24,991 bases of DNA from an uncultured Gammaproteobacteria bacterium (GCA_964362965.1 CAYIGO010000001.1:1-24991); one strand, 5' to 3'; positions 8,087 to 20,541 are shown, counted from the stretch's first letter. A program made the numbers and translations. The notes: a model not told the origin generated them from the letters alone.

Positions 8087-8563
8087 TTATTTTTTACTTA
8101 GTTGATAGTGCAGGGCAACTTTGCCAGAAGCGATTAAGTGCTCAAACCTAACTTGATCAAGAATATCTAAATTCATATTTTGAGATTTGCTGATCTTCTT
8201 TACGGATTTTTTAACCGCAATCTGCTCAACGGGTAACTCTGGAATATCGAGTGTTCTGCCCGTTAAATCGTTTTTGTTAAATAGATAATATTTTGGCCTC
8301 ATGCGATATTTAAGAAGTACTCCAAACCACTCAGCGACAATCTTGTCTTTAATTCGTAGTGCCAAAATACCTGAGGTAGCCGTAGAGATAATAATGAGCA
8401 CTAACTTTAGTGAGGTGAGCTTCATGCTGGGCAGAAGTAAGATATAAATAATGGCCGTCCATAGAATTGGTGCCATGAGAATTAATATTTGAGTCATATT
8501 GAGGCTCCCTGCAATCTTGTCCTCAACAGTCGTGATTTGTGCTGGGATGATGGTAGTTCTCAT
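8087..8563 (-). CDS. prgI: PrgI family protein
   Basis: IPAQITTVEDKIAGSLNMTQ followed by two TM helices and RPKYY; located upstream of virB4. Confidence 0.8.
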   Translation of the reverse strand: MRTTIIPAQITTVEDKIAGSLNMTQILILMAPILWTAIIYILLLPSMKLTSLKLVLIIISTATSGILALRIKDKIVAEWFGVLLKYRMRPKYYLFNKNDLTGRTLDIPELPVEQIAVKKSVKKISKSQNMNLDILDQVRFEHLIASGKVALHYQLSKK

Positions 8564-10336: not shown

Positions 10337-12376
10337 CTATTCATACCGCAATGCGTTTAGGGCGGATATTTTTGTTGCTCTGCGTGCCGGATAAATACCG
10401 GTGACCAGTCCAACCAAAAGCGATAAGAAAATAATCACAAAAACAAATGGAAGAGGAATATAGGAAATGTCCACAAAACCCACACCTTTAATAATGGCAA
10501 AAAACGATAAGAAGATGCCAAGAAGCCTCCCTAAAACCCAGCCAAAGATAATCCCCAAGATGCCACCCAAAAATCCCATGATCATTGATTCGGTCAAAAA
10601 CAATTCTGAAACCTCCGAGGATTTCATACCCATCGCTTTCATCAGCCCCACTTCCCGCGTACGCTCCAAAAGCGAAACAGTGAGCGTGTTAAACATGCCA
10701 AGGGCAGCCACAGACAAGGCAACCATGCCTAGTAGCATGAGCACTGTTCGTGCTGTTGCAAACAACGAATTGATTTGCGCCACGGTATCCGCCACCGAAC
10801 GGGTCATATACCCCATGGACTCAATTTGCCGTCTGGTTTTAACGAGTTCATTTTGGTCTTTCACCACCACCTTGGCTTGGGAAAAGTTCGTGATGCCTAA
10901 ACTCCGAAGATCAAGAAACGGCACGTAAAAGAATGGCGTTTTTTCTTCAGGGATCACACCGACAATTGTGTATTCCGCCGAGGATGATTCAATATTGGCT
11001 GACGGATCACTTAACAGATCACCAACCACCACAAATGTGGTCATAAATTTCTTACCAAGCGCTTCGGCTTCTTTAATGCCCAACACCGAGAGCATTGCTC
11101 GATTCACAACTGCCTCACGTTTGGCAGATGTGGAAAGATCCACGGTTTTTGTTTCGGCAGGTTTAATAATGCCGGCCTCCGAGGCAATATCGACCCAATT
11201 CACACCCGCACTTCCTGACGCATCGGAGCTGACGCCTAAGACTTTCGGCTCTGAAATGTTCACTCCTGATAATGTAAGTCCTATCTCTGCAAAATATCCA
11301 GCCTTTTGGATTTGTGTGTTGTCTTCATCACGGGCTACCAGATATTTTCCGCCTTCGCAGTCTCCCTGGGTTGCGGGGTCGCACTTTTCGCTTTTCCACA
11401 GGAGCACCTCTGCCTTCATCCATTTTCCGATCATTTTCCCGTCTTCTGTTTCTCCAAAAGTGCCTATGCCGTCATCTGATTCATATTTCCCTCCCCAAAC
11501 CTCCTCGCCTTGCGGAGACCCTTCCACTCGTTTGGTATACCCAATGATCTTGCCTGTCGTTGACGGATTTTCGCGCACGCGTATCCACGTTCCCGGATCA
11601 ATGATAAAGTCCACATCCTGGATTTTTTCACCTATTACTCCGACTTTTTGTTCCGTCGACACACCAGCTACCTGACCTCTGAGAGAGGAAACATCAAAAG
11701 ATAATTCATTACTCTCAAACACTTTTCCGTCCACCGGCTTGATGGCTGATTGCTTGAGATAATCAGTCGTGACACCATACACCGCCATATCCGTGACAGA
11801 GTTTAAGTAGTTTACTCGTCCGACTACTGCAATGAGTGGCAACGCCATATCTACTGAGGTAATTTCTTTAAAATTTGCCAGTGTTTGATCATTAATTTTT
11901 ACTTTTCCTCCGGGTTGAGGGGAAACATCAGCTTGTTTCATCTCGTCAAGCCGAGCCACCCGAGTAATGACCAGTCGTTCAAAACCGTAGCCCATGGACA
12001 CTAAAAAGACAATCGCGCCAATCCCAATCGTCATGCCACCAACGGTAATAGAGGTCCGTGTTCTTTTGGACTTCATATTGCGTAAGGAAAGCTCGATCAA
12101 CTCGACTCTTGAAATAGACCCCGTTCGTTGCAGATCAAGAAAAAACATGGCACGGGTATACCCACGAGTGGATGCTTTGATCACTTTTTGAAAGAGTCTG
12201 CTTTGGATCAATCTTCGTCCAATACCATGGGTTTTTGTTTCCAAGAGAAACACCATCAAGGCGCAGGCTTTGGCAAAAAGAAAAACCATCAACAGCACCA
12301 CAAATGTCGTCACCTTCCAAAAGTTGGTTTTCAGATCTATAAAAAATTTCTTGATTTTTTCTTTACGTGTTGGCAT
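10337..12376 (-). CDS. MacB/FtsX-family ABC transporter permease with an enlarged extracytoplasmic domain
   Basis: LRNMKSKRTRTSITVGGMTIGIGAIV, SLLERTREVGLMKAMG, and the C-terminal GIYPARRATKISALNALRYE. Confidence 0.92.
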   Translation of the reverse strand: MPTRKEKIKKFFIDLKTNFWKVTTFVVLLMVFLFAKACALMVFLLETKTHGIGRRLIQSRLFQKVIKASTRGYTRAMFFLDLQRTGSISRVELIELSLRNMKSKRTRTSITVGGMTIGIGAIVFLVSMGYGFERLVITRVARLDEMKQADVSPQPGGKVKINDQTLANFKEITSVDMALPLIAVVGRVNYLNSVTDMAVYGVTTDYLKQSAIKPVDGKVFESNELSFDVSSLRGQVAGVSTEQKVGVIGEKIQDVDFIIDPGTWIRVRENPSTTGKIIGYTKRVEGSPQGEEVWGGKYESDDGIGTFGETEDGKMIGKWMKAEVLLWKSEKCDPATQGDCEGGKYLVARDEDNTQIQKAGYFAEIGLTLSGVNISEPKVLGVSSDASGSAGVNWVDIASEAGIIKPAETKTVDLSTSAKREAVVNRAMLSVLGIKEAEALGKKFMTTFVVVGDLLSDPSANIESSSAEYTIVGVIPEEKTPFFYVPFLDLRSLGITNFSQAKVVVKDQNELVKTRRQIESMGYMTRSVADTVAQINSLFATARTVLMLLGMVALSVAALGMFNTLTVSLLERTREVGLMKAMGMKSSEVSELFLTESMIMGFLGGILGIIFGWVLGRLLGIFLSFFAIIKGVGFVDISYIPLPFVFVIIFLSLLVGLVTGIYPARRATKISALNALRYE

Positions 12377-13127
12377 AGGATGGTGTTCCGCTTCCGCGTT
12401 TCCCTTTAATTTCTAACAATAATGATTCTTTATCTTTTTCCCCATATTCTCCGACGATGGTCCCGTTAAACATCTTGACTGCGGTTTTGGCAAAGGTGAG
12501 GTATTCCAAATCGTGCGTGACCATGAGTATTGTTTTTGCCTGGTCTCTGTTGAGCGTAACGAGCAAACGCATCAGTTCCTGTCCCGATTCAAAGTCCAGA
12601 TTTCCGGTGGGTTCATCGGCAATAATGACCTCGGGATTTGTTACGAGGGCCCGGGCCAGGGCGACTTTTTGCTGTTGACCACTTGAGAGTTCGGTAGGCG
12701 CATAATTCGACCATTCACCCATCCCCATGACTTCAAGCATAGTGTGTGCTTTTTCCAAGCTTTCACTCTTTAATCTGCCCATCAACACCAAGGGGAAGGC
12801 TACATTTTCCACCACGGTGAGCGACTTAATCCAGTTGGGCTGCTGGTACACCATCCCCACATGGTTTTTACGAAAATCACTGCGTTGATCTTCATCCATG
12901 CCCGCATACAAATTTTTAGTAAGAAACAGACAGGTTCCTGTACTTGGCGCTTCCAGTCCGAGAATCGTATGCAGGAGCGTTGATTTCCCACATCCTGATG
13001 GGCCAAAGATGACACAAAAATCATTTTGGTTTACTTCAAAAGAGATGTCTTTTAACACCGGCACGTCCTGCTTGCCCACATGGAATGATTTGGAGAGATG
13101 GTCGACTTGAATGATGGCGTTTATCAT
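12363..13127 (-). CDS. ABC transporter ATP-binding protein (MacB/LolD type)
   Basis: GPSGCGKST, LSSGQQQKV, IIADEPTGNLD and VTHD motifs. Confidence 0.95.
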   Translation of the reverse strand: MINAIIQVDHLSKSFHVGKQDVPVLKDISFEVNQNDFCVIFGPSGCGKSTLLHTILGLEAPSTGTCLFLTKNLYAGMDEDQRSDFRKNHVGMVYQQPNWIKSLTVVENVAFPLVLMGRLKSESLEKAHTMLEVMGMGEWSNYAPTELSSGQQQKVALARALVTNPEVIIADEPTGNLDFESGQELMRLLVTLNRDQAKTILMVTHDLEYLTFAKTAVKMFNGTIVGEYGEKDKESLLLEIKGKRGSGTPSYANT

Positions 13128-13131
13128 AGTA

Positions 13132-16100
13132 TTACTTTTTGAAGCCTCCTAAAAATCCAAAGGCTCCTTGTAAATTCATAATGACGAGGTTCAGTGCATT
13201 CTCCGTGGCTTTCGGCGTAATGGTGACGGTATCAATGGAGTTGCCGAGATTTCCTGCTTTGTCTTTAGATAGAGAGCGTAGGTGATACACCTTTGATGGC
13301 GTGAGATTGGAGATAATCACAATGTGGTTAAAGGTTAGGTTGCTGTCCTCTTGGGTCTTTTGGGCATACGTTGTTCCTGTCCCTTCGCCAAACTCGACTT
13401 GCGATGTTCCTGGTTCGTCGGTGTTCCAGGACACAATCAGTTGAGCCGTTTGTTCCTGAGCGGTCTGCGTAACCGCGGGGATATTGCTTCCTTCCACATG
13501 GAGATCCGAAATCTGTGGCGGCCGGGTATCGGTGGCGGTGGTCAGCCGTTGGGAATCAGAAGTGGCTTCGTTGCCCACCTTATCCCTGCCTTTGACGACC
13601 AACATATAGTCCGTTTGGGGTAAAAGGCTCCGCACAATCATCCGATGATCACCTTTAGTTAAAGCCACGTTGACTTCATCCCGAGCGTCACCAGTCTGTC
13701 CTTCGGGGTAGTACGTCACAATGGAAGAGACCTCGGTATTTGTTGTCCAGGTGATGAGAATCGTGGATTGGGCGGTGTTGGCCACCTGTTGAATACGGAC
13801 ATTGGTAATTTTTGGTCGGGGGAGCGTGGTAAAGTCGAGCGTTGTTCCTTCGTACTCCGTGCTATCAGAATCAAAGGTATTGATTTTGTAGTAATACTTC
13901 GTGCCGTCAGATAAACCGGTGAGTTCCGTGGTGTAGGTCGTTTCGGATGTAGAGGTCGACACCTCTTTTGATCCGCCAAACGAGGTGGTGGTGCCGTAAT
14001 AAATTTTGACCTTGCTGGCGTTTGAACTCGTGTATTGAATGGTCGTCGTGGTAAGCCCGATGCTTTTAGCCAGGACGTCCTTGACGGTTGGAGCCGCATT
14101 TGTGGAAAAACTTTTCTCATCAGATGTGCCGGTATTCCCATCTTCATCCGTCCATTTGGTTTTGTAGTAGTAGGTGGTTCCCGGATTCAGTCCCGTCAAC
14201 TGAATCGAGTGCGAGGTGACCTGTGAAGAATTACTGGGTTCCACCGTGTTGTAACTTCCGCTGGTCGTCCCATATTGCACCTTGGAATCACTTGTGCGTG
14301 AAGTTGACCACGTGATGGTTGCCTTTTTGGTCGTGAGGCTTCCCGCACTTGGTCCAGTATCAATCGTTGGGGCTGTTGTCCATTTGCCGGTCGGCGTGAT
14401 GGATACGGCATTGGTTCCCGAACTTTGCGCAGCCGCTCCATCTTTGGTGTACACCTTGTAATAATATTTGGCAGAAGACGGTGTGGTGTCCACATACGAA
14501 AGACCGGTCGTTGTTCCTACTTGAGTAAAGGTGCTGTTATCCGTTGACCGTTTGACGAGATAGGTGAGATTTCCTGCTCCTTGATAGGTGGGTGCGACCC
14601 ACGTGAGAGTGACATTCCATTGCGAGGACGCTTTGATACTACTGTCTGACGCAACCACACTGCCTACATTGTCCGGATCAGTTGAGCTGAGTGTAAAGGT
14701 GCCGGAGATGTAGTTTGACGGTGAATAGTTGGGCGTTGTGGCATTGTCAATTGCCACCACATACACCGTATTGGTCCCTTTGTTCACACCGGGGAGTGCT
14801 GCGGCAGCAACGGTTCGTGTGGTGCTGTTGTCAATATAGGTCGATGCGTTTCCTTGAAGCGTGGCTAACGTGCTTGGCGGCGAGGTATTGATCATGTAGT
14901 AGTAATGCGCCACTGAATTTGATCCTGATGGGGTAGCAGTTGGCCAACTGAGTGCATATGAATTTGCGGTAGACGTTATTGGCGTCACCGTGACGGTATC
15001 CGTTCCGCCAAACGCCGGAGCCGCTCCTCCATACGAAAGGTTGCAGGTTCTTATGGTTCCATCGCTTGAGGTATTTCCTGCCGCATCCACCGTACGGAAA
15101 TAGACCACATTTGTTCCCGAGACGATGGATGAGCCGTCCTGAGATTGCGATAATGTTCTCCCCGTTTCCGAGGAAAGAATGTAGTTGGTCACACCAAGCA
15201 ATGATTCCGTGGTTGTCCCGAGCCATGTTCCCGACGTGGAGTTGATCTGATACTGCCAACCATACAGTCCGGCGTTGGAATCAGTCGATGCGGATAAACC
15301 GGAAGTCGGCCAATTAAAACTCATATCTGCCACGTTGGAAAAACTGCCTGATGCGCAGGAAATATACGTCACGTTGGCCGGTGCAGTGTTATCAAACCGG
15401 AACTGAAACTGAGCCGATGAGCCGGAAAAAATGTTTCCGGAGTTATCAACCGCTTTGATATTGAAATAATACGGAGAGCTGGACGTGGTCAGTGCCGTCC
15501 CGATATATCCGCTGGTTGCCAGATCCACACTGGTAGCCGAGACAATAAACTGGCAGGTGGTACCGGCAGTTGAAACAGGAGAAGTGCCTAGGAGTCCCTT
15601 TGCTGTTGCCGGATTGCCAGCTATGTCTGTTCCCAAATACAGACAGTACCCTTTAAGTCCCGATCCGCCGGCGTTATCTGCTCCAGCCGTCCATGAATAA
15701 TAGGGTGACGATCCCTTCGTCCAGGCATTGGAAGACATACTCGTTCCGCCATTTGAGCGGGTCATGGCAACGGTCGATGCGTTGGTCGTCGGGGCGGTGG
15801 TATCGGTTGTCAGTCCTATAGAAACGTGAGGCAATAAAGGGACATCATTCCCACCAAATGTCAGGATTGCCTTGACCGAGATTCTTTGGGAAGTAATCGG
15901 GAGGGCTTGCATGGCCGACTGGGTAAGTTGAGCTGCCGTGTTCACTGTGGTTGTGGTATCGGTGGCGCTTGCCCACGCGCTTCCGGTCCAGTATTTCCAG
16001 GATGATCCTGACTGGCAAGTTGAGCCGTCATCGGTGCAGAGTTGATACTTGATCGCTGCGTTGCCGGTCGCGGTAGAATCGGTAGTGCAGGTTGATCCGG

Positions 16101-16410
16101 CAAGCGTCCCTTCGCAAAACGTATCCCAGGTGTTGACCTGCGCATTGGAGTAGGCGCTGGTGGTATAGACGCTATAGGTGCCTTGTTTGGAAAGCGTAAA
16201 GTCATCGACCTTGACCGTTTTTCCCGCCTTCACCAATACGCCATACTCGCGAGACGCATTGGCGCCGGTCAGCGTCCCCGACAGTTTCCACCACCCCGAT
16301 CCGGCATCCGTGTAGGTGGTAGCAATCGTTGCGCCATTGTAGTAGAGCTGAGCAATAGAGGAAGTAATAGTCCCGCCGACATTGCCTGTGGTCGTATCGT
16401 AGACATACAC
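13132..16410 (-). CDS. C-terminal part of the DGR target: Thr/Ser-rich fibronectin type III repeat surface protein
   Basis: Repeats such as TITWSTSRTSDSKVQYG...HSIQLTGLNPGTTYYYK. No signal peptide of its own. The frame stays open upstream to 16602. Confidence 0.85.
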   Translation of the reverse strand: MYVYDTTTGNVGGTITSSIAQLYYNGATIATTYTDAGSGWWKLSGTLTGANASREYGVLVKAGKTVKVDDFTLSKQGTYSVYTTSAYSNAQVNTWDTFCEGTLAGSTCTTDSTATGNAAIKYQLCTDDGSTCQSGSSWKYWTGSAWASATDTTTTVNTAAQLTQSAMQALPITSQRISVKAILTFGGNDVPLLPHVSIGLTTDTTAPTTNASTVAMTRSNGGTSMSSNAWTKGSSPYYSWTAGADNAGGSGLKGYCLYLGTDIAGNPATAKGLLGTSPVSTAGTTCQFIVSATSVDLATSGYIGTALTTSSSPYYFNIKAVDNSGNIFSGSSAQFQFRFDNTAPANVTYISCASGSFSNVADMSFNWPTSGLSASTDSNAGLYGWQYQINSTSGTWLGTTTESLLGVTNYILSSETGRTLSQSQDGSSIVSGTNVVYFRTVDAAGNTSSDGTIRTCNLSYGGAAPAFGGTDTVTVTPITSTANSYALSWPTATPSGSNSVAHYYYMINTSPPSTLATLQGNASTYIDNSTTRTVAAAALPGVNKGTNTVYVVAIDNATTPNYSPSNYISGTFTLSSTDPDNVGSVVASDSSIKASSQWNVTLTWVAPTYQGAGNLTYLVKRSTDNSTFTQVGTTTGLSYVDTTPSSAKYYYKVYTKDGAAAQSSGTNAVSITPTGKWTTAPTIDTGPSAGSLTTKKATITWSTSRTSDSKVQYGTTSGSYNTVEPSNSSQVTSHSIQLTGLNPGTTYYYKTKWTDEDGNTGTSDEKSFSTNAAPTVKDVLAKSIGLTTTTIQYTSSNASKVKIYYGTTTSFGGSKEVSTSTSETTYTTELTGLSDGTKYYYKINTFDSDSTEYEGTTLDFTTLPRPKITNVRIQQVANTAQSTILITWTTNTEVSSIVTYYPEGQTGDARDEVNVALTKGDHRMIVRSLLPQTDYMLVVKGRDKVGNEATSDSQRLTTATDTRPPQISDLHVEGSNIPAVTQTAQEQTAQLIVSWNTDEPGTSQVEFGEGTGTTYAQKTQEDSNLTFNHIVIISNLTPSKVYHLRSLSKDKAGNLGNSIDTVTITPKATENALNLVIMNLQGAFGFLGGFKK

Positions 16411-16500
16411 GGAGAAATCATAGGTTGAGGTGTCACCAACATTGACTGACTGGTAGATTTTTCCGTCCGAGATTGAGCCTATAGTAACGGTATCGCCACC

Positions 16501-16515
16501 GGCCGCTGCGCGGCC
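16501..16515 (-). promoter_or_regulatory. DGR target-recognition hairpin downstream of VR/IMH
   Basis: GGCCGC-GCA-GCGGCC (6-bp GC stem, 3-nt loop), about 35 nt after the VR and inside coding sequence. Confidence 0.7.
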
Positions 16516-16555
16516 AGAAGAAGAGGAGAAAGAGTGAGAGATGGCTACGGGATCA

Positions 16556-16668
16556 CTGGCGCAACGAAAGCCAACGTTGCTGTACGTTCCCCGGCGCGAA
16601 AATCAGATACGCTGTGAACGCCCCGGCGTAGGACGTGCTAAACCAATGGCCGCCGCGCTAGAAGGCGT
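16556..16668 (-). repeat. DGR variable repeat (VR)
   Basis: Matches 20054-20168 with 14 substitutions, all opposite TR adenines, plus a 2-nt deletion. Homology continues to 16551 with one C/T difference (IMH versus IMH*). Confidence 0.97.
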
Positions 16669-17797
16669 AGACAGTTGAAGCAGCGGAACCAGAGTTGTGA
16701 TAGATTCTTCCAACACCGTAGGTGGCATCATAGGCAGATGCAAGTGGGCGATAGGCATCGTAGGTCAATGAGCCATATGAAGTAAGTGCAGTAAATTCCC
16801 GCCAAGCAAAACCCGATTGACCACTAACATCGGGTTGGTTTGCTTCGGTAATGGTGTCATTGGTCCATTCCCAAACGTTGCCAGGGATGTCCCAAATGTA
16901 GGCGCCGTTACTCAGTGTGAGAACGCGTTTTTGATTGCCAGCTGTTCCTGAAGTATTGTTCGCAGTATTTGTGGGACAGGAACTGGGGGCTTCGGTGGTA
17001 CCGGCAGTATCGGTGTAGGCGCAGGCATTGTTGCCGGTATCGGTCGTGGAAGCAACCACTGCCAGAGCCGGTGCGTTGTCATTGTGTCCGGCGTAAAGGT
17101 AACCGCTCCCGACTGAACCCAAACTCCAGTTACCGGCTTGGGCTTCGGCGTTTCGTGCAACCGTCATCCATTCATTGTTGGTAATAAGGTGAGTCGCACT
17201 GCCATTGATAGAGACAGTAGAACAGCGGGTGATGGCGTTGGTTTGAGAAACGTTCGCTATTGGATATCCAGAGGCAACCGAGACGACTGCTTTGGAGTTG
17301 GCGCTGGTACAGGCAGTCCCTGAATCGGAATACGTATGATATCCTGAATCAGGAGAGGTAAGTCCTGTTGTCAAGTCAGAGGTGGCTGCACATTTTGCTT
17401 CATATTTCATGGCCAAAAATTCAGTCGTAGAATAGGTGGCATCTGCTGGAACCGCAACCCAACCGGCAGGCGCTACTGCTGCCACACTCCAGGAAGTATT
17501 GTTGCTGGCAAAGGCGGGATTCGTGAGTTTATTGGCAACCGAGTGCGCTCCCGTATCATCAACCGTGACCAGCGTGGAATCGTAGGTGTACGTACCAGCA
17601 TTCGCCGTATTAAATGTCCAGGTTTTAGCGGTGTCATTGAGCGCAAAAATGCTGGTGATGCCTTTGAGCGTCAGATACGAGCCGGCGATGAGCCCGACGG
17701 TGATAAACAGAAGGGCAACAAGATTAAACTGAAACCGCGAAAAATGGAAGCGTGGGGTAAAGAGGTAGGTTTTGAGTTTAATTAATATTTGTCTCAT
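16658..17797 (-). CDS. N-terminal part of the DGR target: TM/signal plus CLec-fold (FGE-sulfatase-like) domain, truncated by TAG in the VR
   Basis: FLAMKYEA, HLITNNEWMTVARN and IWDIPGNVWEW motifs; the RGGxW motif follows immediately after the stop. Confidence 0.9.
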   Translation of the reverse strand: MRQILIKLKTYLFTPRFHFSRFQFNLVALLFITVGLIAGSYLTLKGITSIFALNDTAKTWTFNTANAGTYTYDSTLVTVDDTGAHSVANKLTNPAFASNNTSWSVAAVAPAGWVAVPADATYSTTEFLAMKYEAKCAATSDLTTGLTSPDSGYHTYSDSGTACTSANSKAVVSVASGYPIANVSQTNAITRCSTVSINGSATHLITNNEWMTVARNAEAQAGNWSLGSVGSGYLYAGHNDNAPALAVVASTTDTGNNACAYTDTAGTTEAPSSCPTNTANNTSGTAGNQKRVLTLSNGAYIWDIPGNVWEWTNDTITEANQPDVSGQSGFAWREFTALTSYGSLTYDAYRPLASAYDATYGVGRIYHNSGSAASTVYAF

Positions 17798-18615
17798 GTT
17801 AGTTTCTTTATACTTCCATTATTCAGTAACGACCGCATCTGAACGATAGCAATTTGATTCAGTTGAACTAGACGATCTGATTGGGATATTTTTCTTCTGA
17901 TTAACTCAGCGTTTATACCTTCCAAATTGGCCAAGACAACCAATTGAGTTACGTCAGCGTAATCACGAATATTTCCATCTTTGTTCGAATTTTCGTCACG
18001 CCAATCTTTAGCTGTTTTTCCAAACAGAGCTACATTGAGAACATCTGCTTCGCTGGCATAAACCATGTTGGCTCTATTGCCAGTGACATTTTCAGGAATT
18101 AAGTGTTCTTGAATTGCATCCGCGTGGATCTTGTAGTTAATTTTTGTGAGAGTTCTTTTGACATCCCAGCCAAGCGCCAGTTTTTGACTTTCTTCTTCTT
18201 TTAGTCGTTGGAATTCTTTGATTAAATACAATTTGAATTCAGCAGAGATCCAAGATGCAAACTCAAAGGCGATATCCTTATGGGCATATGTGCCACCAGT
18301 TCTTCCTTTTTTTGAAACCAATCCTATTGCATTGGTGGACTCTGTCCATTTTTTTGGAGTTAAAGAAAAGCTATTTAACCCTGCTTTTTGTCTAAATCCA
18401 TCGAATTCGATGGATTTAAAATCAGGATTATTTATCTTTTCCCAAAGTCCCAAAAATTCTATCGTGTCACGATTACGGAGCCAGTTTTGAATTATATAAT
18501 CACTTCTGTCCTCATCTTTATATCTGGCGATATCAGTCAAAGAGATATAGTCAGATTCCTTTTTAAAAAAAATGACAATTTCTATGCCTTTAACTGTAAT
18601 TTTTGTATTAGTCAT
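17794..18615 (-). CDS. KilA-N domain DNA-binding protein
   Basis: DYISLTDIA...IQNWLRNRDTIEFLGLWE...GGTYAHKDIAFEFASWIS. Its stop overlaps the target start (ATGA). Alternative starts at 18627 and 18630. Confidence 0.85.
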   Translation of the reverse strand: MTNTKITVKGIEIVIFFKKESDYISLTDIARYKDEDRSDYIIQNWLRNRDTIEFLGLWEKINNPDFKSIEFDGFRQKAGLNSFSLTPKKWTESTNAIGLVSKKGRTGGTYAHKDIAFEFASWISAEFKLYLIKEFQRLKEEESQKLALGWDVKRTLTKINYKIHADAIQEHLIPENVTGNRANMVYASEADVLNVALFGKTAKDWRDENSNKDGNIRDYADVTQLVVLANLEGINAELIRRKISQSDRLVQLNQIAIVQMRSLLNNGSIKKLT

Positions 18616-18728
18616 ATTTTTTCTCATCATTCAAAAATGCTCAAACACATACAAACAAAACGGCTGCTATGCAACCCCATACAATCATAATAGTATTTCT
18701 GAAAGAAATTGCAACGTTGCAAACTGCA

Positions 18729-19877
18729 TCACGGTCTCAATAGATGTTTTGTCAATCCGTGGCTATTGGCATGTTTGAAATGACCAATAATCGAGGCCTT
18801 TGTTTCGGCAAGTTTTTTGCTGGTTATCCGGCCATTTTTTACTTGTTTTTCTTTGGAGCGGTAGTTGCGCTCAATCCGGCGAAGCGTGGTACCACGAACC
18901 AGTACATGATCATAAAATGTCCGATACCCAACAAATGGCACTCCAGTTGAAACATTTTTGATGGTGAGTTTTTTAGGATGCAGGCAAAGATGGAGTTTCT
19001 CTTGGAGAAAAGCATCAATTGTCGCACAAAGCTGTTGTAAATACGTACGGTCGTGGTGCAACACAAAAAAGTCGTCCATATACCGCCCATACCAACGTAC
19101 TCTGAGACGGTCTTTAATAAAGTGGTCGAGTTCATTGAGGTAAATATTGGCAAAGAGCTGGCTCGTCAGATTGCCGATTGGTAAACCAGTTCTGTGCTTG
19201 ACCGAAATACTTGCTTTCGCACCATCCGAACTTGAATCAAAAAGAGAGAGCTGTGAGGGAACAAGTCTTTGGGGTGCTGTTAAATGGTGATGCGACGTAA
19301 CGATCGTTTGAATCAGTGCTAATGTTTTTGGGCAGTGAACGGTTTTACCCATAATCCGAAGAAGAATATCCCAGGATACACTTTGGAAGAATTTACGGAT
19401 GTCACACTGAAGAACATAGATTGACGTATTTTTACCATGAAAAGATCGGGCTGCCATGAGGAATTTTTTTAATCGCTTGGCAGCAAGATGTGTGCCTTTG
19501 TCTGTACGACATGCATAGGAGTCGTAAATAAATTGTTTTTCAAACAAGGGCTGGATCACATTGACTAATGCGTGTTGGATAACTCTATCTCGGAAATCCG
19601 GCGCGGCGATACTCCTGGTTTTTGGATCATGAAGCATGAAATAGGTATATGGACGCGGTACATATAGGCCCTGATCCAATTCCCATCGCAAATCAAAGAG
19701 GTTTTCCTCAAGTGAAAACGTGAACGCGCAAATCTTTCGCTTATAGCGATTATCCAGTTGTGCCTGCGTATGCGCGTACAATAAATTTTCTAAATTACAT
19801 AGCTGTGTATACATAAAACGACAAACCCCGCTCTCACAAGCAGGGCTTGTCTTCTTGTACCCCATTTCTGTTTTCAC
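18729..19877 (-). CDS. DGR reverse transcriptase (start uncertain: 19877, 19862 or 19814)
   Basis: FRDRVIQHA, DSYACR..KGTH, QCDIRKFF, GLPIGNLTSQLFAN (the DGR-type SQ motif) and YMDD; no maturase or endonuclease domain. Confidence 0.97.
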   Translation of the reverse strand: MKTEMGYKKTSPACESGVCRFMYTQLCNLENLLYAHTQAQLDNRYKRKICAFTFSLEENLFDLRWELDQGLYVPRPYTYFMLHDPKTRSIAAPDFRDRVIQHALVNVIQPLFEKQFIYDSYACRTDKGTHLAAKRLKKFLMAARSFHGKNTSIYVLQCDIRKFFQSVSWDILLRIMGKTVHCPKTLALIQTIVTSHHHLTAPQRLVPSQLSLFDSSSDGAKASISVKHRTGLPIGNLTSQLFANIYLNELDHFIKDRLRVRWYGRYMDDFFVLHHDRTYLQQLCATIDAFLQEKLHLCLHPKKLTIKNVSTGVPFVGYRTFYDHVLVRGTTLRRIERNYRSKEKQVKNGRITSKKLAETKASIIGHFKHANSHGLTKHLLRP

Positions 19878-20018
19878 CCATTTACTCTACCATCCGTATA
19901 TCGAGAATGATAAAAATACAGGCGTTATGTTTTTCCAACTCATGCTGGAATGGAAAAGACCGCTGTGATCCTAAAACCCTGGATATGCATCCGTAAACAC
20001 ATACCGCTCGTTCTGGCG

Positions 20019-20046
20019 TTTCCTTTGCGGGTACGGGCAAAGGAAA
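20019..20046 (-). ncRNA. Stem-loop in the DGR RNA spacer downstream of TR
   Basis: TTTCCTTTGC-N8-GCAAAGGAAA, a 10-bp perfect stem directly after the TR. Confidence 0.6.
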
Positions 20047-20053
20047 GAGATCG

Positions 20054-20168
20054 CTGGCGCAACGAAAGCCAATGTTGTTGTTCGTATTCCCCGGCGTGTT
20101 ATTCAGATTCGCTGTGAACGCCCCGGCGTTGGACGTGTTATTCCAATTGCCGCCGCGTTAGAAGGCGT
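20054..20168 (-). ncRNA. DGR template repeat (TR)
   Basis: Non-coding, between avd and RT. In the target frame it has 11 AAY codons (aat tgg aat aac ... aat acg aac aac aac att) and one TAA. Confidence 0.97.
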
Positions 20169-20199: not shown

Positions 20200-20541
20200 T
20201 CATACACTTCGTGGCCCCATCCAACTTGAGAGCATCCGTCCGACTTCATTGAGCTTTTCAGCAGTCGTCACATATTGCTTAACACTCATAAGGCGCGTAT
20301 CTTTGGTAAGCCGCACTATGATACGCAAATAATCCAACGTGTCCGATGCTTCAGTTTGTAGGGCATTTCTTTCAATTCCTCGTGCTTTATTGGCTTTCAT
20401 GAGAAACATGAGAAGTGAGAGCGCCAATTCTTCAAGTCTTCTTCCGAGAATATGACGGTGATTTTTGGGTAAACGGTTGATGATGGGGTACAAGTAGAGG
20501 ATAAAATCGTAGGTTTTTTGGTGCAGGATGAATTTTTCCAT
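20200..20541 (-). CDS. avd: DGR accessory variability determinant (four-helix bundle)
   Basis: 113-aa basic helical protein (LPKNHRHILGRRLEE...LRIIVRL...EVGRMLSSW), directly upstream of the TR. Confidence 0.92.
   Translation of the reverse strand: MEKFILHQKTYDFILYLYPIINRLPKNHRHILGRRLEELALSLLMFLMKANKARGIERNALQTEASDTLDYLRIIVRLTKDTRLMSVKQYVTTAEKLNEVGRMLSSWMGPRSV

Follow-up and report, generated by a model that had tools for sequence, protein, structure and literature searches.

Most described targets of diversity-generating retroelements (DGRs) carry the variable region (VR) at the end of the gene, where one survey places 87% of VRs (PMC11661182). Roux et al. describe VRs as C-terminal and explain the prevalence of this position by the cis elements, which only there can be intergenic and free of coding constraint (PMC8144416); the position has also been linked to an ancestry in which terminator-like stem-loops were targeted (PMC3240598). 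A stem-loop located 3' of the initiation of mutagenic homing (IMH) sequence promotes retrohoming by virtue of its stem structure, not its sequence (PMC3240598), and is important but not essential for the process (PMC3240598; PMC12875486). In phage DGRs, the hairpin consensus comprises (i) a stem of 7-10 bp, (ii) a 4-nt GRNA loop, and (iii) a spacing of 4-34 bp to the VR (PMC3240598). Here we analyze a contig of 24,991 nucleotides labelled as an uncultured Gammaproteobacteria bacterium (GCA_964362965.1 CAYIGO010000001.1:1-24991), the whole of which is referred to as the window. It encodes a DGR target protein that is very probably best explained as an internally placed target with coding-embedded signals, in which codon choice is set by the need for a DNA hairpin.

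An internal VR as such is not new. A further survey reports 17 N-terminal VRs in phage tail-fibre-like targets, and the supplementary table of Roux et al. includes at least one target from the candidate phyla radiation (CPR) with a relative VR position of 0.23 (PMC8144416). In addition, the tentaclins comprise a phage family with an N-terminal lectin VR domain followed by 1-4 immunoglobulin (Ig) domains, reported in a paper in which DNA cis elements were not analyzed (PMC10743442). An earlier reading of the window from its sequence alone (the sequence-only reading) was right that most DGR targets carry the VR at the 3' end, yet internal VRs had already been published (PMC10743442; PMC11661182). 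What is new is the evidence, across a large cellular family, that selection acts on a hairpin and spacer that are translated; no description of coding-embedded DGR cis elements under selection was found in the literature covered, which did not extend to Paul et al. 2017.

Comparison with the closest described systems

Like the DGR of Bordetella phage BPP-1 (PMC3240598), the locus displays (i) an adenine-mutagenized VR at the end of a C-lectin fold, (ii) a non-mutated IMH at the VR 3' end, slightly unlike the copy in the template repeat (TR), and (iii) a GC-rich inverted repeat just downstream, with stems that vary while pairing is kept and a loop of the G...A type. Nevertheless, the 4 bp that separate VR and hairpin in BPP-1 contain the mtd stop codon, leaving the hairpin non-coding, whereas here both spacer and hairpin are translated; the gene order also differs, being target-avd-TR-reverse transcriptase (RT) in BPP-1 and avd-TR-RT-target in the window.

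The tentaclins (PMC10743442) share with the target a variable domain of lectin fold with a series of Ig-like β-sandwiches behind it, as well as a gene position downstream of the RT. However, they are phage or prophage proteins of 313-650 aa, whereas the protein described here is encoded by a cell or a conjugative element and comprises ~1,555 aa. Moreover, tentaclins begin with a DUF6273-like lectin and end with an Ig domain that has a consensus of its own, in contrast to the FGE-sulfatase type lectin placed after an anchor and jelly-roll strands, and the about 9-10 fibronectin type III (FN3)-like domains, of the present protein. The genomic context is likewise not that of a phage, the neighbours being a VirD4-like coupling protein, a Replic_Relax protein and an ABC/MacB pair.

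The CPR/Patescibacteria DGRs of clade 2 (Roux et al. 2021, PMC8144416) resemble the locus in host group, aquatic/groundwater habitat and cellular encoding, but the arrangement is the opposite of the one on which the rationale of those authors is based, and appears to be maintained under selection. At the structural level, the best matches TaqVP (5vf4), TvpA (2y3c) and Mtd (1yu*) also display a VR ending in a GFRC-type strand; the lectin domain ends those proteins, whereas here a CBM-like jelly roll, in which it is probably nested, and then an FN3 array follow it.

Internal position of the variable region

In the repaired frame, in which an in-frame TAG is read through and 2 nt are restored at 16587/16588, the target comprises ~1,555 aa and the VR codes for about residues 377-416, about one quarter into the protein. 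A search with the downstream part retrieves more than 400 relatives, mostly of 1,500-1,620 aa, with a VR-type motif at about residues 350-475 in the full-length members; 73 full-length proteins exceed 1,400 aa and carry the motif beyond residue 150. More than 70 intact homologues from Patescibacteria share the same layout, including a 91% identical protein of 1,554 aa (P0004) with GFRC at residues 409-412. The 111 loci analyzed yield 105 VR instances, of which 77 are open for at least 60 codons upstream, 14 are broken in the VR and 12 meet a contig end, and the open lengths are mostly 369-459 codons before the VR and 1,123-1,183 codons after GFRC. The C-terminal VR, a usual although not strictly defining DGR trait, is replaced here by a VR with ~1,140 residues after it. 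The VR is confirmed as truly internal, and this position as the norm for the family. The repaired frame and the continuous homologues bear out the placement of the VR at about codons 377-415 of ~1,555 in the sequence-only reading, and most homologues run on well past GFRC instead of ending right after it.

Two sets of relatives depart from this layout. In a distant relative (L113:2030-2125), the frame closes 10 codons from the start of GFRC (GFRCASDPVG, followed by a stop), and yet GATCCCGTAG is retained, a hint that the stretch belongs to a cis element and does not reflect protein constraint alone. In L090 (5600-6200) and L111, avd is followed 462 nt downstream by an Asn-rich repeat that resembles an unmutated TR and runs straight into the VR-type spacer and the domain after it. 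The arrangement looks like a TR-VR recombination deletion in which the RT and the first part of the target were lost.

Evidence for selection on the translated spacer and hairpin

The frame 3' of the VR reads GFRCAS-DPVAISHSFSSSS-GRAAAGG across the IMH-like end, the spacer and the hairpin, all of which are translated, as the sequence-only reading had proposed. A GC stem of 6-8 bp lies 3' of the IMH, with arms at 16515-16510 and 16506-16501 and a GCA loop at 16509-16507. Synonymous-codon identity, computed in 10-codon windows from GFRC on 35 loci less than 90% identical in nucleotides, is 0.66 for codons 0-9 and 0.62 for codons 10-19, compared to 0.30-0.52 in 39 later windows. The AGT, GAT, GTA, ATC, CAA and TCT codons are nearly fixed, and codons 7-19 from GFRC lie outside the TR homology. 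The spacer and the region downstream of the TR share only a short CCCGTA match. An antisense open reading frame (ORF) with a Shine-Dalgarno-like run opposite the spacer was also considered and was rejected on inspection of the alignment, its start codon not being conserved in relatives.

A hairpin was scored where a 36-nt window at this position held a perfect stem of 5 bp or more closed by a loop of 3-5 nt. Of 89 unique homologues, 50 have one; among 6,017 control windows taken from the same genes the share is 6.9%, and among GC-matched windows it is 9.3%. Stems of 6 bp or more occur in 35% of the homologues compared to 2% of controls. When synonymous codons are resampled with the protein preserved, 6.9 +/- 2.5 stems of 5 bp or more and 1.5 +/- 1.2 of 6 bp or more are predicted, where 50 and 31, respectively, are observed. 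The stems comprise at least 10 distinct sequences that differ between lineages, including GGCCGC/GCGGCC, GGTCGC/GCGACC, CCGGC/GCCGG, CCGGG/CCCGG, CCGGA/TCCGG and CTGGCC/GGCCAG, together with 7- and 9-bp versions. In the compensatory pair GGTCGC/GCGACC, an Ala becomes Thr and GRxAA becomes GREAT, the protein changing to keep the pairing, and the loop codon is free to change (A, E, G, F, S, V) between stems that persist. Among the 50 hairpins, the loop conforms to GNA in 26 and GNNA in six, and 45 have their stem start at nt 55-58, the spacing from the IMH on its 3' side being fixed.

The hairpin also tends to accompany the RT: where 5.5 kb or more of upstream sequence is available, 29 of the 39 loci that carry an RT have retained the spacer and a hairpin stem of 5 bp or more, versus 3 of the 9 that lack one, the three sharing one sequence, and the spacer is decayed in L031, L038 and L078, which have no RT nearby. 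Together, these comparisons support conservation of the spacer and hairpin beyond protein constraint, that is, selection at the DNA level, with the hairpin conserved in homologues through codon choice and compensatory changes, as the sequence-only reading had suggested checking.

Template, alleles and the broken copy in this assembly

The core alignment of TR and VR comprises 15 A-to-N and two other substitutions together with one 2-nt gap; TR adenines account for 15 of the 17 substitutions, and the same pattern is found in 27 related loci. Within the 682-kb genome, the TR matches only itself and this VR. Its in-frame reading, AF*RGGNWNNTSNAGAFTANLNNTPGNTNNNIGFRCASD, contains 11 AAY codons, as the sequence-only reading had stated; 15^11 is ~8.6e12, in line with the about 9x10^12 variants given there. 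The last 20 nt of the VR equal the TR except for one C/T difference, as expected of an IMH.

Contigs from other samples display different VRs on the same background. The contig X2, which comes from a different study, differs by 12 substitutions, all within the VR, and by 2 additional nt through which the frame is restored, with the TAG retained despite the 12 other differences; in X6, 68 nt of the VR are exchanged for 70 other nt; and another assembly (L114, 99% nucleotide identity) shows the same TR with its TAA and an uninterrupted VR with Leu at the site of the stop codon. The window, X2 and L114 thus differ in the VR while their flanks are 99-100% identical, which makes at least three alleles across different samples. 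The metagenome runs were searched as contigs, not reads, from which variant frequencies are not derivable; the X1 contigs break inside the VR, and the VR holes in X1 and X7 show fragmentation only. The different alleles, together with the contig breaks inside the VR, point, indirectly, to ongoing mutagenic retrohoming.

In this assembly the target is OFF: its VR contains both a TAG and a 2-nt deletion, and because of this stop and frameshift a full-length protein is not made from the window allele. Recoding of TAG as an escape from the stop was rejected, TAG being an ordinary stop in this genome (the stops of 334 long ORFs comprise 159 TAA, 110 TGA and 65 TAG). The TAA of the TR falls at the starred codon of AF*RGG, and the TRs of L016 and L024 likewise display TAA there; in an 86% identical relative (L015:3100-3250 and 8250-8400), TR and VR alike carry TGA at the conserved Trp codon (RGGN*NN). 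Indels of 1-2 nt relative to the own TR occur in 4 of 27 VRs (L025, L039, L041 and the window). The broken VRs may be either frameshifts made by the DGR or assembly errors at a polymorphic site.

Architecture of the target protein

PF03781 is the only Pfam family found in residues 1-420 at E values up to 1, and on an intact homologue it scores 27.1 bits (cut-off 23.3), the match stopping precisely at GFRC. The model of residues 45-720 (predicted local distance difference test, pLDDT, 86) matches, among Protein Data Bank entries searched with Foldseek, TaqVP, Mtd and TvpA best, then FGE, and then the jelly rolls of CBM4/16/61; the VR is predicted to form the last strands of a C-lectin/FGE fold. 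The residues encoded by the spacer are predicted as ordered β-strands (pLDDT 94-96), so that the pyrimidine-rich linker of the sequence-only reading is not floppy at the protein level, and the GRxAAGG encoded by the hairpin is the only part placed in a loop. Residues 708-1554 yield an all-β model (pLDDT 83, predicted template modelling score 0.41) that matches FN3/Ig arrays such as those of fibronectin, gp130 and thick-filament proteins. The sole hydrophobic segment is N-terminal (residues about 19-47) and predicted as a membrane anchor, and about 120 residues of β-strands separate it from the lectin domain.

The modelled layout comprises (i) an N-terminal anchor, (ii) a jelly roll and an FGE-type C-lectin domain with the VR, the latter probably nested in the former, which is CBM-like, and (iii) an FN3/Ig-like array of about 9-10 FN3-like domains. 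By chain order, the variable domain would lie next to the membrane with the FN3 array beyond, because the only anchor is N-terminal. The sequence-only reading had pictured an adhesin head on an FN3 stalk: the C-lectin/FGE variable domain and the FN3/Ig array stand, but with the predicted anchor beside the variable domain, a head held away from the membrane by a plain stalk is hard to reconcile. That the protein attaches an episymbiont to its host is speculation, and a mating-pair or other surface role is equally open, because the module often adjoins conjugation genes and always a MacB-type ABC pair.

Proposed mechanism and alternative explanations

We propose that the RT/Avd complex would copy the TR RNA into complementary DNA (cDNA) with errors at adenines, and that the mutated cDNA would replace the VR, which, as in canonical targets, would code for the last ~40 residues of an FGE-sulfatase-type C-lectin domain. 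This domain is predicted at residues about 170-415 of an N-terminally anchored, all-β protein with ~1,140 residues after it, so that the 3' recognition elements cannot be intergenic. The putative signals would instead be translated, the IMH as GFRCAS, the 37-nt spacer as DPVAISxSFSSSS in an ordered strand, and the GNA-loop GC hairpin as GRxAA in a surface loop, and keeping the DNA hairpin would set codon choice and, in places, amino acids. By analogy with BPP-1, hairpin and spacer may promote cDNA integration, and the spacer may be an additional clade-specific cis element. That these 3' elements act wholly within the ORF and impose part of the protein sequence is a narrower claim that we hold with less assurance, as somewhat the better bet.

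Hairpin and spacer could be mere by-products of protein constraint, with the codons for Gly, Ala and Arg being reverse complements (GGC/GCC, CGC/GCG) and no selection acting on DNA structure. The conserved peptide, the ordered strand encoded by the spacer, the 61% G+C of the region compared to 47%, and the fairly good pairing of slid-register controls would accord with this explanation, which is nevertheless very improbable: resampled synonymous codons and GC-matched windows fall far short of the hairpins observed, the Ser, Val, Ile and Gln codons of the spacer are nearly invariant, and stems are kept around a free loop residue, once by a non-synonymous compensatory change. A selected hairpin with a role outside the DGR, as a pause site for transcription or translation at a domain boundary or as an mRNA stability element, would agree with its coding for a loop between two strands at the lectin-domain exit and with a geometry unlike the phage consensus (PMC3240598). 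Such a role is unlikely, however, as no U-tract follows the hairpin, the distance to the IMH is fixed, the G..A loops echo the GRNA loops of DGR hairpins (PMC3240598), and both hairpin and spacer are eroded where relatives lack a nearby RT (L031, L038, L078). Least credible, to the point of being close to dismissed, is a native split state, with a lectin gene of 379-414 aa ending in a C-terminal VR followed by a separate FN3 gene. It is suggested by the two ORFs as assembled and by about 25-30 of 120 database relatives with 1,050-1,175 aa that start in or after the VR; several of these short forms, however, start at contig ends, both lesions of the window lie inside the VR of an otherwise intact 4.67-kb frame, the 99% identical element is continuous across the VR, as are most relatives, and the family displays neither a stop after GFRCAS nor a conserved start or ribosome-binding site there.

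Against these arguments for an internally placed target with coding-embedded signals, several observations weigh in the other direction. The window allele is broken by its TAG and frameshift, and the phage-type geometry is not reproduced, the core stem comprising 6 bp (8 with G-T pairs) around a 3-nt GNA loop and starting 34-37 nt after the end of the TR homology, compared to 4-34 bp in the consensus (PMC3240598). A perfect stem of at least 5 bp is missing in about 44% of the unique homologues, which are moreover related, so their counts are not independent. Folded as DNA, this single sequence recovers the hairpin, but it folds no better than shuffles do (z = -0.91) and so provides no evidence on its own. 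Single-register covariation counts on 75 sequences exceed slid controls only modestly, a consequence of the high G+C of the region and of the use of at least two registers; weight was instead placed on hairpin counts free of any fixed register and on the resampling of codons. Finally, the role of hairpin and spacer in retrohoming is drawn from their likeness to BPP-1.

Organization and distribution of the locus

A complete DGR, comprising bAvd, TR and RT, lies upstream of the target gene on the minus strand (Table 1), in a genome of 682 kb that is 90% complete; the metagenome runs containing stretches of the window are mostly groundwater by record. The RT displays both motifs diagnostic of DGRs, IGNLTSQ for (I/L/V)GxxxSQ and YMDD for YxDD, and the accessory protein is recognized as bAvd (PF22296) well above its cut-off. 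Upstream of the DGR parts lie genes for a VirD4-like coupling protein and a Replic_Relax protein, either of which also occurs upstream in 13-22 related loci. The order avd-TR-RT-target-ABC-MacB is kept in 56-62 loci. The KilA-N gene, on the other hand, is present in only three related loci and is therefore not core to the module.

Table 1. Features of the DGR locus in the window, in order along the minus strand
Feature	Position	Strand	Remarks
bAvd accessory gene	20200-20541	minus	PF22296, 79.9 bits, cut-off 40
TR	20049-20168	minus	11 in-frame AAY codons and an in-frame TAA
DGR reverse transcriptase	18729-19877	minus	RVT_1 E = 8.8e-23; IGNLTSQ at residue 234, YMDD at 266
KilA-N gene	17794-18630	minus	between RT and target
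DGR target gene	13132-17797	minus	4.67 kb, ~1,555 codons in repaired frame
N-terminal ORF as assembled	16658-17797	minus	379 aa, ends at in-frame TAG in VR
VR	16551-16668	minus	TR homology with adenine-specific differences
In-frame TAG in VR	16658-16660	minus	TAA at matching TR site 20158-20160
Open frame 3' of VR lesion	13132-16596	minus	1,154 codons
2-nt deletion relative to TR, frameshift	16587/16588	minus	other samples with 2 extra nt
IMH-like VR 3' end	16553-16572	minus	codes for GFRCAS; no adenine mutagenesis
Pyrimidine-rich spacer, 37 nt	16516-16552	minus	codes for DPVAISHSFSSSS; 32/37 pyrimidine; synonymous sites conserved in family
GC hairpin	16499-16517	minus	core GGCCGC-GCA-GCGGCC at 16501-16515, extendable to 8 pairs; codes for GRAAA
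Second ORF as assembled	13132-16410	minus	ORF call
ABC ATPase and MacB/FtsX permease	10337-13127	minus	adjoins target; syntenic in 56-62 related loci

Directly after the TR, at about 19960-20048, a 10-bp inverted repeat (TTTCCTTTGC ... GCAAAGGAAA) is followed by motifs common to related elements (GCCAGA-GAG, TTTACGGA and GATCAC); this stretch is probably the DGR RNA spacer that recruits RT/Avd.

The target gene displays ~48-53% G+C (13000-18000) compared to 39.6% for the genome, and its C-terminal 850 residues are 67-84% identical among metagenome-assembled genomes labelled as different candidate phyla; composition and cross-phylum identity together suggest spread by a conjugative element. Taken jointly with the rest of our explanation, it is very probable that the DGR module is widespread in Patescibacteria, often on a conjugative element, and that the target is of a working DGR type.

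Implications

The family runs counter to the stated rationale of the field for C-terminal VRs. If the proposed explanation is true, the usual C-terminal position of the VR would reflect convenience and not a mechanistic requirement, and the homologues would constitute a ready comparative data set for the requirements on hairpin and spacer. The family also shows that DGR diversification can be placed mid-way in very large proteins, which bears on the engineering of DGRs for the directed evolution of internal domains.

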